35,963 nt of DNA from a virus, in UHGV virus genome UHGV-0041739, one strand, 5' to 3'. The notes below the pieces were generated by a model. It had not been told where the DNA came from, did not search any database, and was given only the letters and a program-made list of their open reading frames with translations. Positions 2,313 through 29,756 of the stretch are shown here, in pieces. Position 1 is the first letter of the stretch. Each line of letters starts with the position of its first letter. Both the position numbers and the translations under genes were made by a program.

Positions 2313-3249
2313 TCAGGCTTCTGGCGCATTACAGAAAAACCAGAACGGCGCAGATATTCCGGGAAAAGATACCTTCACCAAAAATATTGGGGCCTGTCGC
2401 GCATATAGCGCATGGCTGAATATTGGTGGCGATAGTCAGACCTGGACAACCGCACAATTCATTTCGTGGCTGGAGAGTCAGGGGGCATTTAACCATCCTT
2501 ACTGGATGTGCAAAGGCTCATGGGCTTATGCAAACAATAAGGTCATTACAGATACAGGTTGCGGAAATATTTGTCTTGCAGGTGCTGTGGTGGAAGTTAT
2601 TGGCACTCGCGGCGCAATGACCATACGCGTTACTACGCCGAGTACATCCAGCGGTGGCGGAATTACTAACGCTCAATTCACCTATATTAATCATGGTAAT
2701 GCTTATGCTCCTGGCTGGCGACGAGACTACAACACGAAAAACCAGCAGCCTGCATTTGCTTTAGGGCAAACAGGAAGCAGGGTTGCAAATGATAAAGCTG
2801 TTGGCTGGAACTGGAATAGCGGCATTTATGATGCAGATATCAGTGGCGCATCGACATTAATCCTCCACTTTAATATGAATGCGGGGAGTTGCCCTGCTGT
2901 ACAGTTCCGCGTGAATTACAGGAACGGCGGTATTTTTTATCGTTCAGCGCGTGATGGTTATGGATTTGAGGCTGACTGGTCAGAGTTTTACACCACGACC
3001 CGCAAACCCTCTGCGGGAGATGTTGGTGCATACACGCAGGCAGAATGTAACTCAAGGTTTATTACAGGTATTCGCCTTGGCGGTCTGTCATCTGTTCAGA
3101 CATGGAATGGTCCCGGCTGGTCTGACAGGTCAGGTTATGTCGTTACGGGTTCAGTTAACGGAAACCGTGATGAATTAATTGATACAACTCAGGCAAGGCC
3201 AATTCAGTATTGCATTAATGGAAGGTGGTATAACGCGGGGAGTATTTAA
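2280..3249 (+). CDS. S': S'v alternative tail-fibre variable cassette (silent; no own start, expressed only after G inversion fuses it to Sc)
   Basis: ORF-track entry 2110-3249 extends upstream into gin antisense; homology to S (IIQNLGLQETVNQASGALQKNQNGADIP) begins at the gix site. Gly/Asn/Thr-rich fibre-like composition. Confidence 0.7.
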
Positions 3250-3251
3250 TT

Positions 3252-3785
3252 ATGATGCACTTAAAAAACATTACTGCTGGCAACCCTAAAACAAAAGAGC
3301 AATACCAGCTAACGAAACAATTTAACATCAAATGGCTTTATACAGAGGATGGGAAAAACTGGTATGAGGAACAAAAGAACTTTCAGCCTGATACGTTGAA
3401 AATGGTCTATGACCACAACGACGTTATTATTTGTATTGAAAAGGATGTTTCAGCAATTAATCCAGAAGGCGCAAGCGTCGTTGAGGTTCCTGATATTACA
3501 GCAAATCGCCGGGCTGATATTTCGGGTAAATGGATGTTCAAAGATGGCGTAGTGATAAAGCGAACTTATACCGAGGAGGAACAGAGGCAGCAGGCAGAGA
3601 ATGAAAAGCAAAGCCTATTGCAACTTGTCAGGGATAAAACCCAGCTATGGGACTCACAGCTACGGCTGGGTATCATTTCCAACGAGAATAAACAAAAATT
3701 AACCGAGTGGATGCTCTATGCGCAGAAGGTCGAATCCACAGACACCTCCAGCCTGCCAGTAACGTTTCCAGAACAACCAGAATGA
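3252..3785 (+). CDS. U': U' tail fibre assembly chaperone (alternative)
   Basis: Paralog of U ([24 protein letters not shown] vs [24 protein letters not shown]); follows S'v directly. Confidence 0.85.
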   Translation: MMHLKNITAGNPKTKEQYQLTKQFNIKWLYTEDGKNWYEEQKNFQPDTLKMVYDHNDVIICIEKDVSAINPEGASVVEVPDITANRRADISGKWMFKDGVVIKRTYTEEEQRQQAENEKQSLLQLVRDKTQLWDSQLRLGIISNENKQKLTEWMLYAQKVESTDTSSLPVTFPEQPE

Positions 3786-3787
3786 AA

Positions 3788-3812
3788 CAAGGCCCGCTAT
3801 CGGGCCTTAATT
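3788..3812. terminator. Bidirectional intrinsic terminator between convergent U and U'
   Basis: GGCCCG-CTAT-CGGGCC hairpin (3791-3806) flanked by T-rich tracts on both strands. Confidence 0.6.
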
Positions 3813-3813
3813 T

Positions 3814-4341
3814 TTATTCAGGCTTTTGTGGCCATTCAGGATTTGCCGTATCCACACGGCTGACCAGAACGCTGTAGCGTTCCCATGCTTCCAGTCGTGT
3901 GCGTTCCTCGTCTGTTGCCATATTCAGCCTGACAGCGCGTTCCAGCGGCTGGATGACTGATTCAGCTTCGGAAATCAACGCGGCCTTTTGTGATTCGGCC
4001 TGTTGTTGCTGTTCGTCAGCCGTATAAATCCGCTTAATCACAGCACCATCCTTAAACATCCATTTACCTGAGTCATCAGCACGTCGGTTGGCGGTAATAT
4101 CAGGAACCTCGACAACGCTAAAACCTTCAGGGTTAAGCGTGGAGGCATCTTTGGTGATGGCGACAATAATATTATTTTCGTCGTATACAATCTTTATGGT
4201 GTCGTCCTGAAAGTTATTTACTTCCTCATACCAGTTTTTACCGTCTTCTGTATATAACCAGATAACATCAAAATTCTTTGTTAGCTGACATTGCTCTTTT
4301 GTTTTTGGATTTCCTGACTTAATATTTTTTAAATGCTGCAT
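3814..4341 (-). CDS. U: U tail fibre assembly chaperone
   Basis: 175 aa, immediately downstream of S; paralogous to U'. Confidence 0.85.
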
Positions 4342-4344
4342 AAT

Positions 4345-5847
4345 TTACACCTGTGCGACGTTATACCATGTGCCATTGATGTATTTTTGTATTGGTCTGA
4401 AGATGGCTTCATCATCGCCATCTACTTCACCAATGATTCTTAATCCGGTAATTGCGTGTCCGGCTTTTTCATAACGACCACCACGCGCCATCAATTGAAC
4501 AACACGCGTACCCAGGCGAACATCTTTCACATAACGGGAATCAAAGTTACCGTAATCCGAGGGGTTAACACGCCCTGTAATATTTATGGTTTTATTACTT
4601 TGAATGCTGCCGGAGACAAAGCGCATAACATGGACGTTATTAGCATAAACGTCCAGATTACCGTCGCCATTTTGTTTAAAGCCCGTGTCATTATCACCCA
4701 AAACAATCGAGTTACCGCCAAGAGCACTGGATGTTCCGATACCCAGTGCACCATTCAATTGACCACCAGATAATGACAACGCCCCAACATCAGCAGCAGT
4801 CGGTTTTATGTGCGAACTGTAAATTACATATACAGTCCCATCTGTCAGGCCTGTCGGTTTATTCGCTGTATAAGTTGGTGATGTATGAATTTGTACAGTG
4901 GCATCCTTTGTATAATCCCACTGGATATTAACACCCGTGGCGTAATTACCTATTTCTACATAAATGTCATAGGTATCACCGGATGTATTCACCCATGCAA
5001 AATTAGTAAATCCAACCGAGGTCCGTCGCCATAATGCACCAGTAATACCCTTTGGATTTCCATTTCCGGCACGCAGAACCAGCTCAGAGATGCCTGCTTG
5101 CTGCGGGGAGCCAACGTTATACCCTGCACCACCAATCAGGCTTATGTAAACCACGGAACTGGCTTGTGGCATTGTTACAGTTGCCAGTTTGAACCATCCT
5201 GCACCACCATTAAAAGACATGGTTGTTGAATTTGTTGCTCCAATATTGCGCAGGAATAATCTTTTATCAGGAATATCTGCGCCATTCTGGTTTTTCTGCA
5301 ACGCACCAGAAGCCTGATTTACCGTTTCCTGTAAACCGAGGTTTTGGATAAACAGCGGCTTATTGGGAATATCTGCTCCGTTCCGGTCTTTTGCCAGACG
5401 GGCATTGGCATTATCCATCGCAATTTTCACCGCTTTTGCGGTGGCTGCCAGCGTTTCACTGGGGCTGTCAGTGGCACTGGTTAGCTGAACGAGTCCTTTT
5501 TTGTTCAGGCTGGCATCATAGATATCCAGATTTTCACGTGCTGTACGCTGTGCTGATGCCCCGGCAATTTTAATTTCGCTGAGGTTATTTTTTATCAGCA
5601 GCGCGTTATTGCTCATAATGGATTTAATGGACAGTGCAAGCTGGTTTAATTTTGTTTTATCCGGTTGAATACCGGCTTCTTCCAGCGTGTTTAATAACTC
5701 CGCCTGCACAATATTAAACCAGTCCATGCCGGGCCATGTGATAACATTATTCCCGTCACCTTCTGAAAACCAGCGAACGATAGCACTACGCTGGGCGGAT
5801 ACGGGCGGCATGACGGTTACGCCGCTGTCGTTATCAATATAAAACAT
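4345..5847 (-). CDS. S: S tail fibre protein (Sc constant N-terminal ~165 aa plus Sv variable part inside the G segment)
   Basis: 500 aa; gix site lies within the coding sequence at residues ~165-178 (LFIQNLGLQETVNQ); Gly/Asn/Thr-rich C-terminal fibre region. Confidence 0.88.
   Translation of the reverse strand: MFYIDNDSGVTVMPPVSAQRSAIVRWFSEGDGNNVITWPGMDWFNIVQAELLNTLEEAGIQPDKTKLNQLALSIKSIMSNNALLIKNNLSEIKIAGASAQRTARENLDIYDASLNKKGLVQLTSATDSPSETLAATAKAVKIAMDNANARLAKDRNGADIPNKPLFIQNLGLQETVNQASGALQKNQNGADIPDKRLFLRNIGATNSTTMSFNGGAGWFKLATVTMPQASSVVYISLIGGAGYNVGSPQQAGISELVLRAGNGNPKGITGALWRRTSVGFTNFAWVNTSGDTYDIYVEIGNYATGVNIQWDYTKDATVQIHTSPTYTANKPTGLTDGTVYVIYSSHIKPTAADVGALSLSGGQLNGALGIGTSSALGGNSIVLGDNDTGFKQNGDGNLDVYANNVHVMRFVSGSIQSNKTINITGRVNPSDYGNFDSRYVKDVRLGTRVVQLMARGGRYEKAGHAITGLRIIGEVDGDDEAIFRPIQKYINGTWYNVAQV
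5317..5350. repeat. gix recombination site (S-proximal), inverted copy
   Basis: GTTTCCTGTAAACCGAGGTTTTGGATAA, reverse complement of the 2279-2306 site. Confidence 0.8.
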
Positions 5848-24501: not shown

Positions 24502-24687
24502 ATGAAAGAAAAGCTGACCATTGACCAAAAAATTGAGATTGCAAAAATAGCAAGTGACTTTGTTATCGCTGGCATGAATACGAATAAACAGCCAGCGTGT
24601 CTTGCCGGTTCTGATCAAAATGTGAAGTCAGAACGGGAGTTGTTAAAACATATTTATCAGTTGCTGGAGGCAATGATTACTGATTAA
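24502..24687 (+). CDS. Small plus-strand ORF (61 aa), AT-rich, antisense to the late operon; candidate moron
   Basis: AAGAGG Shine-Dalgarno 6 nt before ATG; TATAAAT -10-like element ~35 nt upstream; visibly lower GC than flanks; no recognisable family. Confidence 0.4.
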   Translation: MKEKLTIDQKIEIAKIASDFVIAGMNTNKQPACLAGSDQNVKSERELLKHIYQLLEAMITD

Positions 24688-24871
24688 TTTGTGACTCTCT
24701 GATGATCTGGCCCGCGATACGCGGGCCAACCACAATCTGCATTAACAGATACAGTGATTCGGCTTTTGTGACGATATGAATATTGCCCTCCTCAGCCAGC
24801 GCCGCTTCGACGATGGGTTTGAGTTTCAGGGCAATTTCCGCAGACGTTTTTTCTTTGGTTTCAACAGCCAT
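24677..24871 (-). CDS. Small hypothetical protein (64 aa) between the gp27-like gene and terminase
   Basis: AAAGGAG SD ~9 nt upstream of ATG (MAVETKEK...); 3' end overlaps the plus-strand ORF by 11 bp; contains GGCCCGCG-ATA-CGCGGGCC hairpin (24709-24727). Confidence 0.45.
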   Translation of the reverse strand: MAVETKEKTSAEIALKLKPIVEAALAEEGNIHIVTKAESLYLLMQIVVGPRIAGQIIRESQINQ

Positions 24872-24884
24872 TACATTTTCTCCT

Positions 24885-25463
24885 TTACGCTTTCCCCAGC
24901 AGCACATCACGGATACGCTGCTCCAGTTCTTCGCTGATGCCATCCTGCCCGCGCAGTTCTTCGCTGACAGCGTTTGCCGCTTCTTCTGCGAATGCCTGGC
25001 GGATCTCTTTCTCGCGCCGGTGGCTGGACATTGCTGTGGATTCCAGACGCTGTGCCGCCAGCATGGCGTTTTTCAGCAGTTCAATATCCACGTCATCTTC
25101 CGGTTTTTCGATTTGCCGCATCATGGCTTTAAAAAGCTGGCTGCGGGCCATTTCCAGAATCAGCTTTGTGGTTTCCCCCATTGGCTTGTCGCCAAGTTCT
25201 GCGGTCAGTGCTGACGTCATTTCACGCATCTGTCGCAGGTTATGGCCTACCTGTTCGACGTTTGTCGCGTAACGGTTCAGGCCGGAACGGGAGAGTTTCA
25301 TGTCATCAGGCAGTCCGGCATCTTCAATCAGGGCGTTAATTTCTTCCAGAATGCGGGCCTGTGGGATTGCCTTGTCACGCAGCATTTCATGCAGTGTTTT
25401 GCGCACGTTTTCCGGCAGCAAATCCACTTTTGAAGCCCGTCCCCGTGTTTTCCTGTCCATCAT
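24885..25463 (-). CDS. Mu gp27-like protein (DUF3486; putative DNA-binding packaging protein / small-terminase candidate)
   Basis: 192 aa, N-terminus ...RGRASKVDLLPENVRKTL typical of DUF3486; position upstream of large terminase. Confidence 0.7.
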   Translation of the reverse strand: MMDRKTRGRASKVDLLPENVRKTLHEMLRDKAIPQARILEEINALIEDAGLPDDMKLSRSGLNRYATNVEQVGHNLRQMREMTSALTAELGDKPMGETTKLILEMARSQLFKAMMRQIEKPEDDVDIELLKNAMLAAQRLESTAMSSHRREKEIRQAFAEEAANAVSEELRGQDGISEELEQRIRDVLLGKA

Positions 25464-25471
25464 GCCTCCGT

Positions 25472-25762
25472 TCAGAAGCGGGGACGTGGACGTTTGACAC
25501 CGGAAACACGAGCCCGGCCTTCAGCCACATCCTGACCACGGGAGGTCAGCGTCACGACATAAAAGCCGCGCAGGTTTTCCACGGTGACAAGCTGCTGTTC
25601 TGCCAGCCAGTCAATCTGACCACGAACCACATCACGTGAAACGTTATGCCCGTAAGCATCCAGGCAATCCTGCAAAATGGATTCGTTAGCCTCGTTATTG
25701 CAGTCCATCAGTGAACGCAGGATGACCAGGCGGCGATCCTGCGTCAGAATGTCGTCAATCAT
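25472..25762 (-). CDS. Hypothetical protein (Mu gp26-like position), possible winged-helix
   Basis: 96 aa, soluble, in operon with lysis/packaging genes. Confidence 0.5.
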   Translation of the reverse strand: MIDDILTQDRRLVILRSLMDCNNEANESILQDCLDAYGHNVSRDVVRGQIDWLAEQQLVTVENLRGFYVVTLTSRGQDVAEGRARVSGVKRPRPRF

Positions 25763-26058
25763 TTGTTGTTCTCTCCGAGCGCCTTTTCGAGCAAAAGCTC
25801 CAGTTGATGGGTCAGCACCTGTATGTGCCGGTTCATCGCTTTCACTTCACCATTGGTTTCTGCGGTTTGTAACCGGACAGCATGTAAATCCTGTGCACTG
25901 GGCATGTTTTCGCACTTCGTTTCAAGCGCGGTTAAACGGCTTTCGATTTGCTCCACACGTTCCGTACTGGCAAATGTACGCCTCACCGCCCACCACAAAA
26001 TGCCACCAATGGTGCTGCCACTGCCTATCGAGTAGGTCAGCACTGAATAAATATCCAC
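25759..26058 (-). CDS. Lysis-associated membrane protein (N-terminal TM plus coiled coil; spanin- or releasin-like)
   Basis: 99 aa with hydrophobic segment SVLTYSIGSGSTIGGILWWAV followed by heptad-like region; immediately downstream of lys. Confidence 0.5.
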   Translation of the reverse strand: MDIYSVLTYSIGSGSTIGGILWWAVRRTFASTERVEQIESRLTALETKCENMPSAQDLHAVRLQTAETNGEVKAMNRHIQVLTHQLELLLEKALGENNK

Positions 26059-26070
26059 ACGCTCTCCTGT

Positions 26071-26499
26071 TTACAGCCCTGACGACATACCCGGCATTAA
26101 TCCCGGCACCGGTAACACATCATCATTCAGCAGCTGATTATTACGGGGAGCGGGCACAGCACCAGAACCGGCGCTGAACATAAACACCGCCAGTGCATTT
26201 TTTTGCTCCTCTGTCAGTGGCCTGTTCAGATGGGTATTTAACGTGTCATAAACAGGCTTCAAATCTGCTTTCAACAGCATGATGCATTCACCATAGCTGT
26301 AAGGGCGTTGCTGAATATCAGGACCGTGATGGTTAAGGCAAACAGTCAGTTCGCCGTGCTGATCTGTGTATGGAAGGTACTGAACAGAAGCCAGCGATGA
26401 ATCACCATCGCCGGACAACTGCCAGCCACCACATGCCGCCAGTACCACGATGGCAAGCGTTCTGATGATGCGGGGGAGACGTTTTTTAAAATCGTTCAT
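26071..26499 (-). CDS. lys: SAR-endolysin homolog (GH24/T4-lysozyme-like fold) with N-terminal signal-anchor
   Basis: N-terminal KKRLPRIIRTLAIVVLAACGG SAR-like segment; catalytic-region motif YLPYTDQHGELTVCLNHHG parallels R21/T4L (Y.D..G..T.G.GH); position after C as in Mu. Confidence 0.7.
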   Translation of the reverse strand: MNDFKKRLPRIIRTLAIVVLAACGGWQLSGDGDSSLASVQYLPYTDQHGELTVCLNHHGPDIQQRPYSYGECIMLLKADLKPVYDTLNTHLNRPLTEEQKNALAVFMFSAGSGAVPAPRNNQLLNDDVLPVPGLMPGMSSGL

Positions 26500-26503
26500 G
26501 AAA

Positions 26504-26528
26504 CCCTCCTTCGGTAATAAAAGGAGGG
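26504..26528 (-). promoter_or_regulatory. Hairpin sequestering the lys Shine-Dalgarno (CCCTCCTT / AAGGAGGG), within the Plys leader
   Basis: Perfect 8-bp stem with 9-nt loop; downstream arm contains AGGAGG located 5 nt before the lys ATG. Confidence 0.45.
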
Positions 26529-26570
26529 TAACTCAGGGGAATTTGCAGACGGGGTTATTATTAATTAACA

Positions 26571-26590
26571 CAACCGGCCTGCACCGGTTG
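26571..26590 (-). terminator. Candidate terminator-like hairpin after C (end of middle transcript)
   Basis: CAACCGG-TGCAGG-CCGGTTG stem-loop followed by a moderately U-rich tract on the minus strand. Confidence 0.3.
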
Positions 26591-26601
26591 ATTGCTGTTA
26601 C

Positions 26602-27012
26602 TCAGAATAAATCGGGCTGATGTCGCCGTGAATGAAGTTTTCTCTGCCGGGCAATAATCTTGTAAATCTGCGGTTGTGACAGACGATGTTCACGCCGCAG
26701 CTCCTCTATGTTCCGACCGTTAAACTGGCAGTAAATCAGATCATCCCGCAACGCTGCCAGAAGTGCATCACCCCGGGGGATGTAATACTGCCGCCCCCCC
26801 AGGAACCATGATAAGGACATCACCTGTTTACGGGCTATGCTCCGTGCATCATCCACGCCCTGACGTTTCAGTTCTGTTTCCAGAACGTCAACCAGCTCAA
26901 CCAGCGCGCGGGGCCAGCGGGCCTCCTGCTCAGGAGCCGGTATATTGTCGATATGATCCATTAACTGGCTTACAGCCGGATCATGTTCAAATAAATCCTG
27001 CTGATTTGTCAT
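26602..27012 (-). CDS. C: Late-gene transcriptional activator C (Mor/C family)
   Basis: 136 aa, paralog of Mor with C-terminal HTH (QPQIYKIIARQRK); last gene of the middle operon, directly upstream of lys. Confidence 0.85.
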   Translation of the reverse strand: MTNQQDLFEHDPAVSQLMDHIDNIPAPEQEARWPRALVELVDVLETELKRQGVDDARSIARKQVMSLSWFLGGRQYYIPRGDALLAALRDDLIYCQFNGRNIEELRREHRLSQPQIYKIIARQRKLHSRRHQPDLF

Positions 27013-27022
27013 TTTGCCCCCA

Positions 27023-27148
27023 TCAGCGAAAAACTAACAGACAGATCCCCGTGACTACGGCAAGCAGTGCAATAACTGTGATACCCTTCATCACCATCAG
27101 CAACGTAGCCATGCCGGAACATTCATTACTGAATCTTCTGTACATCAT
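27023..27148 (-). CDS. Small single-TM membrane protein (Mu gp20-like, lysis-associated)
   Basis: From internal start MMYRRF...; hydrophobic ITVIALLAVVTGICLLVF; overlaps the end of the holin-like gene. Confidence 0.3.
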   Translation of the reverse strand: MMYRRFSNECSGMATLLMVMKGITVIALLAVVTGICLLVFR

Positions 27149-27525
27149 GCCTCCGCGCCAGACGGTACTGAACGTCGCAGACAGATATGGAGGCGAAAGC
27201 AAAACCATATGCTACAGAAGCCAGATAAAGCATAAATCGTGAACTGATGCGCTTCTTCTAAAAGCCCGGTTGCAATAGCCGAAAGACTTAACCCGACGAG
27301 GCCACCAAGAAAATCAATGGCATTAATAGAAGCATAACGTCGGATTTTTCCTGTCCGGGACAGATCATCAAAAATAGTGCCGGTAAAGCACAGCGCCACA
27401 CTGAAAACGGCAGCATTCCAGAACAGCAGCGCCCGCAAACCATAAAACAAGCTGATAATCAGAATCAGCGCCAGCAACATGACCGGCAGACAATTTGGTA
27501 ACAAATAACAGAAACGCTTAAACAT
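27145..27525 (-). CDS. Multi-pass membrane protein, holin-like (Mu gp19-like)
   Basis: 126 aa with three hydrophobic helices; in the middle operon between the GH108 gene and C. Confidence 0.55.
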   Translation of the reverse strand: MFKRFCYLLPNCLPVMLLALILIISLFYGLRALLFWNAAVFSVALCFTGTIFDDLSRTGKIRRYASINAIDFLGGLVGLSLSAIATGLLEEAHQFTIYALSGFCSIWFCFRLHICLRRSVPSGAEA

Positions 27526-27736
27526 GATGCTTTTCCCTGTAACGCTGGCAGTGGTGAATAATTTCTGGCATATCGACTGACTGCCAGCCTTTCATGTAAT
27601 AGCTCCCGTGGGTGCCATCGTGCCCTGTGTAATCCATTGGCTTTGGTGGTGGACCTCCGGCCTCCCGATGCAACACCTCCTGTCGTAAACGTTCGCGTCT
27701 GCCAAACCGAAAGGACGCATCCCACCCTTTACCCAT
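27518..27736 (-). CDS. Small hypothetical protein (72 aa or shorter)
   Basis: ORF bridging the GH108 and holin-like genes; His/Arg-rich; start uncertain. Confidence 0.3.
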   Translation of the reverse strand: MGKGWDASFRFGRRERLRQEVLHREAGGPPPKPMDYTGHDGTHGSYYMKGWQSVDMPEIIHHCQRYREKHHV

Positions 27737-28289
27737 GCAGAACCTCCCGGCAGGCGCTGGCGAGCAGATCCAGACGGTTAAACCAGCCGTTCAGATATTT
27801 CCCCTGCGAGGCACTGGATTTGATAATCCCTGCGTAATAGCGGGAACGACGCAGGAAACACTGCAACAGCAGCCAGTCAGTATCGGCACGCAGTACGGCT
27901 GCGCGAGTGTTTTTGCCGACGATGCCATCATCATCAACACCTGCTGCCGCCTGGAGGATTTGAATTGCGCGTTTAACACCGTGCTGAACGGCAGCATCAA
28001 AGACGAATAAGGAAACACCATCAGGCCATTCGTTACACTTTGCCGCCAGCCAGTAATCACGCCAGTAGATTTGCGCCGCCTGCTCGTGGGTTAAATCTTT
28101 AATACGGGTATCAGGCTTCCCGTCACCGTTAACATCGGTTTTGCCATCAATAACGCCGTCGCGACGGTCAGAAATGCCGTATTTGGTTTCGCCGCCACGG
28201 TCAGTGGGATCATTAACGTAACCACCTTCAACATCAGGCCGTATAACAAAATTCAGCGAATGAAGGAATGCAGGGGAAAACTCAGGCAT
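27729..28289 (-). CDS. Peptidoglycan hydrolase-like protein, GH108 N-terminal domain plus PG_binding_3 C-terminal domain
   Basis: Motif VEGGYVNDPTDRGGETKYGIS matches the GH108 signature (EGGY.NDP.D.GG.T.YGI); C-terminal ...FVFDAAVQHGVKRAIQILQAAAGVDDDGIVGKNTRAAV resembles PG_binding_3. Likely start ATG at 28289 with AGGAGGG SD. Confidence 0.7.
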   Translation of the reverse strand: MPEFSPAFLHSLNFVIRPDVEGGYVNDPTDRGGETKYGISDRRDGVIDGKTDVNGDGKPDTRIKDLTHEQAAQIYWRDYWLAAKCNEWPDGVSLFVFDAAVQHGVKRAIQILQAAAGVDDDGIVGKNTRAAVLRADTDWLLLQCFLRRSRYYAGIIKSSASQGKYLNGWFNRLDLLASACREVLHG

Positions 28290-28336
28290 GTTGCCCTCCT
28301 GTAATGAACGTTTTATCGTCACAACAGAATATTGAG

Positions 28337-28365
28337 GGCGTAAAAAAAGCCGGATTAACCGGCTT
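28337..28365 (-). terminator. Intrinsic terminator after mor (end of early transcript); middle promoter Pm expected in this gap
   Basis: Minus strand AAAGCCGG-TTAAT-CCGGCTTT followed by TTTTTTT; located between the mor stop and the GH108 gene start. Confidence 0.6.
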
Positions 28366-28371
28366 TACTGT

Positions 28372-28761
28372 TTAAAACAGAGGGGGTTGATACTGACGAT
28401 ACTTTATACGCCGCATTCGTCGGATGGCTTTATAGACAGTGTTAAACGTCACACCATAACGAATTGCCAGTTCGTGAACATTGCGCCCGTTAAAATCATT
28501 CCAGATTCGTAAATCCCGAACCAGTGAATCCAGCACCTGCCCACGAGGAATATAGACCTGACCACCGCCAAGATGTTTACAGATAGCCACAACAATCTCC
28601 AGAGAGTGCGCAGGTTCAACGCCCAGCCGGGACAGTTCCTGACGCAGCACATCGTTCAGTTCCGCCAGCAGTGCCGGAAATCGTGACGTATCCCCGGATT
28701 CATTGTCAAGATGAGCCAGGATACTGTCATCCTGAAAGTCGCCAAACAAATCCTGCGTCAT
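28372..28761 (-). CDS. mor: Middle operon regulator Mor (transcriptional activator of Pm)
   Basis: 129 aa, MTQDLFGDFQDDSILAHLDN...RLGVEPAHSLEIVVAICKHLGGGQVYIPRG; Mor/C family; follows gemA as in Mu. Confidence 0.9.
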   Translation of the reverse strand: MTQDLFGDFQDDSILAHLDNESGDTSRFPALLAELNDVLRQELSRLGVEPAHSLEIVVAICKHLGGGQVYIPRGQVLDSLVRDLRIWNDFNGRNVHELAIRYGVTFNTVYKAIRRMRRIKYRQYQPPLF

Positions 28762-29324
28762 TGTGCCAGTCTCCGTGTTTTTCTTGCACGGGCATAAGCT
28801 GCTGTCATGGCATCATAGCCACGCAGTTCACGCCCGGACGGGCTGACCGGCAACGGGAGCCCATAATGGGAAAAGGCTTCACGGATACAGCGGATGTGCC
28901 ACTGTTTCAGGGTTTCAAGCACAATTTGTAACGATTCTCCGTGACACCACGCCAGCGTGGAAACACCCTGTCCGCCATTACGTCTGGCTGTCAGTCGTTC
29001 GACGTATTTATCCAGTGCTGTATCACTGCCATCGGCAATAAAACCGTCTTCTGCCATTTGCTGCCAGATTTTTAATACCTTTTCGTGGGGCGTTACATGC
29101 CCATTAAAGCGACGGCGTGGGTGTTTATTCTGCTTCTTAAAACCGCGTTCTTTCATGGCATCGAGCACCAGCTCCAGTTGCGCGACGGTCAGCTCACGGC
29201 AACTGATTTTGCCCGTGTTCTGCATCAGAAAGGCACGGTAGGTGTCGTCGTCGAGTTGTAGCTCCCGACGGGCGACATGGATTAATTTAATAAGCGATGT
29301 GCGATTCACTTGCTCACCTCTCAT
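28758..29324 (-). CDS. gemA: GemA-like host gene expression modulator (Mu gp16)
   Basis: Likely start at MRGEQVNRTSLIK (29324); the ORF-track extension to 29477 is probably not translated; overlaps the mor start. Confidence 0.75.
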   Translation of the reverse strand: MRGEQVNRTSLIKLIHVARRELQLDDDTYRAFLMQNTGKISCRELTVAQLELVLDAMKERGFKKQNKHPRRRFNGHVTPHEKVLKIWQQMAEDGFIADGSDTALDKYVERLTARRNGGQGVSTLAWCHGESLQIVLETLKQWHIRCIREAFSHYGLPLPVSPSGRELRGYDAMTAAYARARKTRRLAQ

Positions 29325-29339
29325 ATTAAGGAATGAGAT

Positions 29340-29756
29340 ATGAAAATTGATTATGACGAGATAGCCAGAATATTTGATGTATTCCTGGAGGCCGACACTG
29401 CATTCATTCGACTGGAAGATGTCGGCTGGGATCGTTCTCAGCGGCACAGCGACAGCCATCAGAAGCTGGTTTTCCATCTTCTGTTGCTGGTTGAAAATGG
29501 TTTTATCAGCAACAGATATCTGGAAACAGGCACCGCAAAAAGCATTGGTCTCACCCCGACAAGCCTCGGATATTCATATTCAGGCACCAGTGTCAGACTC
29601 ACACAAGATGGTCATGATTTTGCGAAAGCACTACATCAAAAACCCATTCTTGAGCGTATAAAACAGGAGCTTGCCGACGCCCCGATGACGCTCGTAACAG
29701 ACGTCGGCAAACAGTGGTTAACCTCGTTTCTTAAAAAGAAACTCGGGATTGAATAG
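29340..29756 (+). CDS. Plus-strand accessory ORF (138 aa), DUF2513-like winged-helix protein; candidate moron embedded antisense in the early operon
   Basis: AAGGAA SD 8 nt before ATG; start 15 bp from the gemA start (divergent); 3' end overlaps the neighbouring minus gene; ...TQDGHDFAKALHQKPILERIKQEL resembles the DUF2513 pattern (from memory). Confidence 0.55.
   Translation: MKIDYDEIARIFDVFLEADTAFIRLEDVGWDRSQRHSDSHQKLVFHLLLLVENGFISNRYLETGTAKSIGLTPTSLGYSYSGTSVRLTQDGHDFAKALHQKPILERIKQELADAPMTLVTDVGKQWLTSFLKKKLGIE

Follow-up and report, generated by a model that had tools for sequence, protein, structure and literature searches.

The lysis of bacteriophage Mu is unusual, since a releasin is required and no holin takes part (PMC9239132). 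The Mu endolysin gp22 (Lys) is a signal-anchor-release (SAR) endolysin of the GH24 family that acts with the releasin gp25, and its residues K6 and K7 confer releasin dependence. Replacement of its catalytic glutamate (E37A) is a catalytic knockout, stated to be inactive (Chamblee et al. 2022, PMC9239132), and that study raised the question of what DUF2730 proteins do in Mu-like phages whose endolysins are cytoplasmic. In other systems, proteins combining GH108 and PG_binding_3 domains are proven endolysins (PMC7188820). The DNA analysed here, hereafter the window, is the whole 35,963-nucleotide stretch of the virus genome UHGV-0041739, which corresponds to a Mu-like prophage of the sequenced commensal strain Escherichia coli SE11 (NC_011415.1; 100% identity over the queried 2.7 kb) with its genes on the minus strand. 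In the place of Mu lys, it carries a gene for a GH24 homolog, referred to below as short Lys, which has lost the catalytic glutamate and part of the C-terminal lobe and is nevertheless under purifying selection. The explanation favoured here, with moderate confidence, is that short Lys is a pseudo-endolysin derived from Mu gp22, dead as an enzyme but kept for a non-enzymatic role in the lysis module, and that a GH108 protein encoded nearby is the likely muralytic enzyme. The gene, its parts and its upstream region are as follows.

26071-26499, minus strand: short Lys, GH24 (PF00959) homolog of 142 amino acids, RefSeq WP_000997675.1, labelled 'glycoside hydrolase family protein'
26416-26499, minus strand: putative export signal, residues 1-28, a basic start and then an uncharged stretch with L20-A21-A22-C23
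26389-26391, minus strand: codon 37, GCT (Ala), where GH24 lysozymes have their catalytic Glu (Mu gp22 E37, R21 E35)
26158-26388, minus strand: folded core, residues 38-114, a predicted beta-hairpin with D46 and T52 followed by two long helices
26074-26157, minus strand: tail, residues 115-142, Pro/Gly-rich and predicted to be disordered, in place of about 56 canonical C-terminal residues
26500-26601, minus strand: intergenic region between C and short lys, with the Shine-Dalgarno sequence AAGGAGGG at 26504-26511 and the block AATAATAACCCCG at 26550-26562

Short Lys resembles the GH24 family in both sequence and fold. It matches the Pfam profile PF00959 (Phage_lysozyme) at 43.2 bits, with a cut-off of 22.3, over profile positions 6-93 of 125 only, and phmmer relates it to R21 at 1.7e-10. 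In the HMMER alignment with R21 (3hde/3hdf) and RrrD (4zpu), L36-A37 of the query lies opposite the 'LE' of R21, and the MAFFT alignment with Mu Lys gives the identical register, free of gaps up to the PY(T/R)D motif. The motif obtained, A37-x8-D46-x5-T52, thus departs from the GH24 catalytic triad E-x8-D/C-x5-T at its first residue. Catalytic columns were counted in a 63-sequence alignment of 58 full-length Mu/R21-type lysozymes and the five members of the clade to which short Lys belongs. The column of the glutamate (position 37) holds Glu in 58/58 canonical sequences and A, A, D, A and D in the short clade, that of the aspartate (position 46) holds Asp in 58/58 and D, D, D, D and G (the Gly being that of variant P0005), and that of the threonine (position 52) holds Thr in 57/58 and T, T, T, A and T (the Ala being that of variant P0004). 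Therefore, because the alignments agree and the glutamate is present in every canonical relative, its loss is real and clade-specific rather than an artefact of alignment. The initial annotation, which had read Ala at the Glu position with Asp and Thr conserved, was right in this respect, and its own suspicion that the alignment was off can be dropped, as three independent alignments coincide; the reference Mu Lys itself differs from short Lys and has Glu at 37. As an observation apart, Glu50 (codon 26350-26352) is invariant in the short clade, at a position occupied by Val or Ile in 55/58 canonical lysozymes, and may reflect either a surface laid bare by the loss of the N-terminal helix that it once contacted or a newly acquired function.

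The loss of the glutamate is accompanied by a truncation. Past position 114 the short forms have 24-28 residues (28 in SE11) versus a canonical median of 56, so that about 30 residues of the C-terminal lobe are absent and the two-lobe domain is incomplete, and the final 28 residues include 5 Pro and 3 Gly, in line with the Pro-rich tail already noticed in the initial annotation of this 142-residue frame. A first AlphaFold2 model, built from a 5-sequence alignment, was poor (predicted local distance difference test, pLDDT, of 55) and its fold search uninformative, and the model from the 63-sequence alignment was used instead. In the latter, residues 40-111 are predicted at pLDDT 72-94, with a hairpin at 40-45 and 51-54 and helices at 69-90 and 97-110, whereas residues 20-36, which correspond to the canonical Glu-bearing helix, and residues 112-142 are at pLDDT <50, the tail even at <40; the region expected to form that helix is of low complexity and predicted to be disordered. 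The Foldseek neighbours of the model are the SAR endolysins 4zpu, 3hde and 3hdf (E 1.7e-5 to 1.3e-4), and 84 columns align with the active R21 fragment 3hdf at a root mean square deviation (rmsd) of 2.8 A. Therefore, GH24-type peptidoglycan hydrolysis is not expected of short Lys, since the general-acid glutamate is lost, its helix has degenerated and about 30 C-lobe residues have been exchanged for a disordered Pro/Gly tail. Another structural neighbour is PDB 4evx, a 97-residue 'putative phage endolysin' of Salmonella enterica (TM 0.61, normalised to the target), in view of which further short lysozyme-like remnants may exist in enterobacterial prophages.

Several other origins of the short form were considered and rejected. 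The frameshift that the initial annotation proposed to look for was not found, as the remaining two minus-strand frames are full of stops and offer no continuation, and a frameshift or sequencing error is further ruled out because the short form, together with a homologous tail, recurs in five divergent variants and is carried by three complete E. coli genomes. A recent deletion from a Mu-like lys-gp23-gp24 arrangement was also ruled out, since lys has no nucleotide similarity to Mu, WS1933D or elppa5, the only similarity in the compared region being a 64-nt patch in gp25. A fusion joining the start of lys to the end of the o-spanin gene gp23.1 was also set aside. The tail and gp23.1 share a loose 'PVP..MP' flavour, but no blastn match was obtained, and the segment is too short and too low in complexity for a firm comparison; RNNQLLNDD, which makes up the first half of the tail, can instead be aligned in frame to 'STLLKKLNAGD' of canonical enzymes. 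Some database 'lysozymes' close to Mu Lys (P0006, P0007, P0010-P0012 and P0014) have unrelated C-termini and look frameshifted or mis-assembled, and short length alone is thus not evidence of a natural truncated form; unlike them, the SE11 clade has a conserved tail.

The clade comprises five clusters of 138-142 amino acids with 64-99% identity, from E. coli and Salmonella enterica subsp. diarizonae, among 5.8 billion proteins searched. An exhaustive HMMER search over 1.84 billion representatives returned a single 50% cluster, two near-identical (99%) viral contigs were found in IMG/VR, and the GTDB species representatives yielded no genuine member and one spurious match in Chromohalobacter. 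RefSeq and nr label the clade 'glycoside hydrolase family protein' or 'endolysin'. The truncation and the homologous tail are common to 5/5 variants, indicating that the divergence of the clade accrued after the truncation. The frame is intact in all five, and the pairwise ratio of nonsynonymous to synonymous substitution rates (dN/dS, omega; Nei-Gojobori) is 0.13-0.24, at a dS of 0.5-1.7; in the unsaturated pair SE11/P0002, dS is 0.49 and omega 0.13. Neighbouring genes show dN/dS of 0.03-0.13, and short lys evolves faster than they do. Along the protein, dN/dS is 0.21 in the signal (residues 1-28), 0.22 in residues 29-52, 0.115 in the core (residues 53-114), which is the most constrained part, and 0.45 in the tail (115-end). 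Additionally, the strong Shine-Dalgarno sequence AAGGAGGG is kept in all short-Lys loci, and the block AATAATAACCCCG is conserved in all of them and in the region upstream of Mu lys; the intergenic region is presumed to hold the C-dependent promoter Plys. The shared truncation, the low dN/dS and the conserved Shine-Dalgarno and upstream block together demonstrate that short lys is a selected protein-coding gene and not a decaying pseudogene. With its ribosome-binding site, upstream promoter block, putative export signal and a core of about 75 residues under purifying selection, short Lys appears to be still made and used.

The neighbourhood of the gene in the window is the following.

28372-28761, minus strand: Mor, middle transcription activator
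28329-28365, minus strand: dyad, T-run and TCAATAT block AAGCCGGTTAATCCGGCTTTTTTTACGCCCTCAATAT, directly upstream of the GH108 gene and conserved with Mu upstream of gp18
27729-28289, minus strand: GH108 and PG_binding_3 muramidase, WP_001113882.1, 186 amino acids, without signal peptide or transmembrane domain (TMD), triad E21-x8-D30-x4-T35 intact
27518-27736, minus strand: gp18 homolog
27145-27525, minus strand: gp19 homolog, with several TMDs
27023-27148, minus strand: gp20 homolog, with one TMD
26602-27012, minus strand: C, late transcription activator of the Mor family
25759-26058, minus strand: DUF2730 protein (PF10805), homolog of the Mu releasin gp25 with 42% identity to it

The gene order is thus mor-GH108-gp18-gp19-gp20-C-short lys-gp25 homolog (DUF2730)-gp26-gp27, that of Mu being mor-gp18-gp19-gp20-C-lys (171 amino acids)-gp23/23.1-gp24-gp25-gp26-gp27. 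The arrangement is common to 5/5 short-Lys loci, in which gp20 is always there and gp19 variably, and none of the five has the Mu spanin genes gp23/23.1 or the TraR-like gp24. Only 12 nt (26059-26070) separate the stop of short lys from the start of the DUF2730 frame, which matches PF10805 at 59.9 bits (cut-off 24.9) over its full length and has an N-terminal TMD. A lipobox and TMD scan of all window open reading frames (ORFs) of at least 30 amino acids revealed nothing resembling a spanin or a holin on the gene strand, the candidates there being gp19, gp20 and short Lys only and the rest spurious out-of-frame ORFs. A spanin or holin hidden elsewhere in the prophage was ruled out by the same scan, the small ORFs adjacent to gp27 having no TMD. 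These are two convergent ORFs between gp27 and the large terminase gene, 24502-24687 (plus strand) and 24677-24871 (minus strand), of 61 and 64 amino acids, which belong to PHROGs of no assigned function and have no Mu equivalent. A DUF2513 gene at 29340-29756, on the opposite (plus) strand between gemA and the early genes, looks like a moron. The prophage interrupts an rpn-family recombination-promoting nuclease gene, whose halves lie at locus positions 2050-2598 and 39238-39609 (NC_011415.1) and are partial pseudogenes in RefSeq; apart from this split gene in its surroundings, the SE11 Mu-like prophage has zero internal pseudogenes.

Among the alternatives to a retained function, short lys could be a relic that does nothing, in a prophage that has been domesticated or can no longer lyse its host, with the apparent constraint arising from short divergence, recombination or some constraint other than on protein. 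Such a view would accommodate the great rarity of the clade (five clusters among the 5.8 billion proteins, three complete E. coli genomes, no isolated phage), the evolution of short lys at a faster pace than its neighbours and the lack of spanins and gp24 in the lineage. However, the considerable synonymous divergence that followed the truncation has left all frames intact and omega well below 1, the ratio is lowest in the Pfam-homologous core, as selection on a folded protein predicts, and the Shine-Dalgarno and upstream promoter block are conserved amid intact prophage genes, so that the relic is considered unlikely.

The second muralytic candidate of the locus was characterised in the same way. 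The GH108 ORF, placed by the initial annotation between the two Mor-family genes, which agrees with the coordinates above, matches Glyco_hydro_108 at 85.6 bits (cut-off 21.2) and PG_binding_3 at 52.1 bits (cut-off 24.6), as well as PHROG 315 (phrog_315), 'endolysin', at 3.5e-51, and it aligns to the solved GH108 proteins 2ikb, 7dnp (SagA) and 6v3z. Its E21, D30 and T35 are the counterparts of the catalytic E17, D26 and T31 of SagA (PMC8334348), and the triad is kept in 5/5 short-Lys loci, where the gene shows dN/dS of 0.05-0.12. Residues ~44-62 (window 28130-28190) form an Asp/Gly-rich insertion relative to 2IKB, DGVIDGKTDVNGDGKPDTR, which looks like a calcium-binding loop. The block AAGCCGGTTAATCCGGCTTTTTTTACGCCCTCAATAT overlaps the 'Mu Pm nt9163 F' primer, which marks the start of the Pm fragment (Chamblee et al., PMC9239132), and, since the GH108 gene adjoins this Pm-type block, it is placed at the head of the middle operon that depends on Mor. 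A third kind of Mu-like locus was observed in E. coli RM11911 (locus 3198-5527) and Klebsiella phage Kp4866-3 (3989-6291); there GH108 is the sole muramidase and neither C nor GH24 is present, the order being mor-GH108-gp18-gp19-like-~201 amino acid protein-TraR zinc finger-DUF2730. The ~201 amino acid protein is holin-like, with sub-threshold matches to PF11351 (GTA_holin_3TM) at 17.8-20.4 bits. The series of Mu-like architectures, including this GH108-only type, suggests that GH108 and gp18-gp20 together formed a Mu-like lysis cassette of older date, of which gp18-gp20 of Mu are the leftovers.

The N-terminus of short Lys admits more than one interpretation. Five K/R residues stand among the first 13 (K5, K6, R7, R10 and R13), and the five basic residues with KK at 5-6 are common to the five variants. 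The uncharged stretch that follows, T14-G30, has 17 residues in SE11 and 16-17 across the variants, a length like that of the Mu SAR domain; its mean Kyte-Doolittle (KD) hydrophobicity is 1.48 in SE11 (1.48-1.61 in the clade) versus 1.19 in Mu, and its G+A+S+T fraction is 0.47 in SE11 versus 0.59 in Mu, both over 17 residues. For comparison, a SAR signal-anchor is expected to be weakly hydrophobic and rich in Gly, Ala, Ser and Thr, and to span about 16-24 residues behind a short basic cytoplasmic tail. Within it lies a lipobox-like LAAC (nt 26431-26442), conserved in 4/5 members and replaced by LAVC in P0002, with Gly at +2 and CGGWQL invariant in the clade; C23 is Cys in 5/5 short forms, its place being taken by Gly or Ala in canonical relatives. 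Judging from these features, short Lys is likely exported, and the exported product may be held by a SAR-type anchor, be lipidated, or be cleaved and set free in the periplasm. The SAR endolysin label used by the initial annotation thus keeps the support of a SAR-length uncharged stretch, but it is not secure, owing to the invariant Cys in a lipobox-like LAAC.

In a stronger form of the lipoprotein alternative, the remnant would have become a lipoprotein of the outer membrane, either doing the work of the lost spanins or damaging that membrane in some other manner, with the cutting of the wall left to GH108. The invariant Cys of the lipobox-like motif, the basic n-region, the Gly at +2, the Ser/Gly/Asp/Pro-rich tether after the Cys and the Pro-rich disordered tail are in its favour, as is the fact that, with gp23/23.1 missing, short Lys is the sole lipobox candidate on the gene strand of the window. 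The lipobox is expected as [LVI][ASTVI][GAS]C within the first 15-35 residues, behind a basic n-region, and the PROSITE lipoprotein pattern PS00013 asks for 6 uncharged residues before it. A manual check counted 5 in short Lys, one residue short because of R13, and the Val at -1 of the P0002 lipobox is non-canonical. Furthermore, the gene strand offers neither an i-spanin-like ORF nor another lipobox ORF, the frames that overlap short lys are full of stops and short Lys has no C-terminal hydrophobic segment, hence it is by definition neither an o-spanin nor a u-spanin; its tail has no significant similarity to Mu gp23.1, and its N-terminal stretch matches the Mu SAR domain in length. Considering these points, such a conversion into an outer-membrane factor is regarded as quite unlikely.

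The pseudo-endolysin explanation would imply the following course of events. Mor would activate Pm, and the soluble GH108-PG_binding_3 protein, as the first product of the middle operon, would accumulate in the cytoplasm. C would then activate the late lys operon, which would yield the dead Lys along with the DUF2730 (releasin-family) protein encoded next to it. The dead Lys would be exported by Sec and either remain tethered by a SAR-like anchor or receive a lipid at Cys23, acting non-enzymatically with the diverged gp19, gp20 and gp25 in the breaching of the envelope or its timing, and GH108 would finally cut the wall. Among the options raised by the initial annotation, a muralytic function residing with GH108 is the best supported, given the triad intact in 5/5 loci, the activity of GH108 itself being deduced from its sequence.

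A number of observations weigh against this explanation. The short form is found in only 3/5426 complete E. coli genomes and in no isolated phage, and P0003 and P0005 carry Asp at the Glu column, which makes residual activity conceivable. GH108 has no evident route to the wall, as it has no N-terminal hydrophobic segment to reach the periplasm and no recognisable holin occurs in the window, and Mu gp19 and gp20 showed no holin activity (PMC9239132). In addition, a copy of GH108 with 98.9% identity is found in the plaque-forming Yersinia Muvirus vB_YpM_5/6, and WS1933D and elppa5, both prophages of E. coli, have related copies, with a nucleotide identity of 91-95% across GH108 and mor. All of these phages and prophages retain spanins, gp24 and a 171-residue Lys with its Glu. 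Since GH108 coexists there with full Lys and spanins, its role as a one-for-one replacement of Lys was ruled out, and it is to be viewed as an accessory gene rather than a specific replacement.

A bolder proposal is that this Muvirus lineage, having no active SAR endolysin, spanins or recognisable holin, exapted the dead endolysin as a new lysis factor, either a spanin-replacing outer-membrane lipoprotein or a protein that works with the DUF2730 releasin in the membrane and gives GH108 a way through the inner membrane; at present this is a speculative and improbable scenario. If it were true, gp18-gp20 of Mu would be vestiges of an ancestral GH108 cassette and the releasin family would have a role beyond SAR release. 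Finally, that short Lys is still a working muramidase or SAR endolysin by non-canonical catalysis, as the initial annotation had contemplated, for instance through Glu50 or an Asp at 37/38, is very unlikely. In favour of it, D46 and T52 are each retained by four of the five members, E50 is clade-invariant, two variants have Asp at the Glu column, and the endolysin position, the strong Shine-Dalgarno and a SAR-length N-terminal stretch are retained. Against it, Mu gp22 E37A is inactive (PMC9239132), position 37 and its immediate neighbours hold no acidic residue common to the whole clade, Asp46 is Gly in P0005 and Thr52 is Ala in P0004, the Glu-helix region is disordered in the prediction and the missing C-lobe residues belong to the lobe that makes half of the substrate cleft in T4-type lysozymes.

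The divergence of the surrounding proteins from those of Mu also speaks for the pseudo-endolysin explanation. Identity to Mu is 88% for GemA, 87% for Mor, 85% for gp18, 39% for gp19, 38% for gp20, 75% for C, 40% for Lys, 42% for gp25, 96% for gp26 and 98% for gp27. The membrane-targeted gp19, gp20, Lys and gp25 are thus about 37-42% identical to their Mu counterparts, whereas the interleaved and flanking proteins reach 75-98% (window 24885-29309). The four look like a separately evolving or separately inherited set of alleles, and their low identity to Mu is consistent with co-evolution as a module.

The GH24, GH108-PG_binding_3 and DUF2730 families are all known; what is new is a naturally dead, truncated and selected endolysin homolog in a spanin-less Muvirus lineage, of which no description was found in the searched literature. 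The lineage represents a natural experiment, equivalent to gp22 E37A combined with a C-terminal truncation, with no spanins and with a soluble GH108 expressed from the middle promoter. If it is lysis-competent, the crossing of the inner membrane by a soluble muramidase without a known holin becomes testable, and so do the role of DUF2730 without an active SAR endolysin and the use made of a conserved dead endolysin. If it is not, it provides a documented pseudo-enzyme that persists under selection in a prophage. The labels 'glycoside hydrolase family protein' and 'endolysin' are attached to proteins that have lost the catalytic Glu, which is a warning for annotation.

Compared with known systems, the best matches of short Lys in the PDB, by both sequence and structure, are the structurally characterised SAR endolysins R21 of phage 21 and RrrD of DLP12, relative to which it has counterparts for only about 84 of about 133 catalytic-domain residues and has lost the Glu (R21 E35). 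The muramidase domain of SpmX from Asticcacaulis/Caulobacter, which retains the catalytic Glu, was recruited from a phage GH24 domain and serves a purpose other than lysis. Its structure (PDB 6h9d) is a neighbour of the short-Lys model over 74 columns, at an rmsd of 1.9-2.2 A, although SpmX belongs to the developmental proteins of the cell and its domain is complete, and short Lys is phage-borne, truncated and without the Glu. The GH108 protein of the window, in turn, belongs with the GH108-PG_binding_3 muramidases ElyA1/ElyA2 of Acinetobacter prophages (PMC7188820), SagA of Brucella (7dnp, PMC8334348), which has the same E-x8-D-x4-T triad, TtsA/Sen1395 of Salmonella (6v3z) and N4 gp61. It differs from these relatives in being the first gene of a middle operon, outside a holin-endolysin cassette, and, unlike N4 gp61, it has no SAR domain. 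The closest system remains Mu gp22, which, like short lys, is encoded by the first gene after C and ahead of the DUF2730 gene, and which is the best sequence match of short Lys outside its clade (40% identity over 128 aligned columns). Both proteins have a basic N-terminus with KK, then a 17-residue uncharged stretch ending in GG(Y/W)Q, a Cys54/Cys72 pair and a PY-x-D...TVC core. However, Mu gp22 has 171 residues and E37, while short Lys has 142 and Ala37, and the Gly-run of the Mu SAR domain is in short Lys a more hydrophobic stretch with an invariant Cys. At its catalytic position, therefore, the natural short Lys corresponds to the engineered, inactive Mu gp22 E37A.

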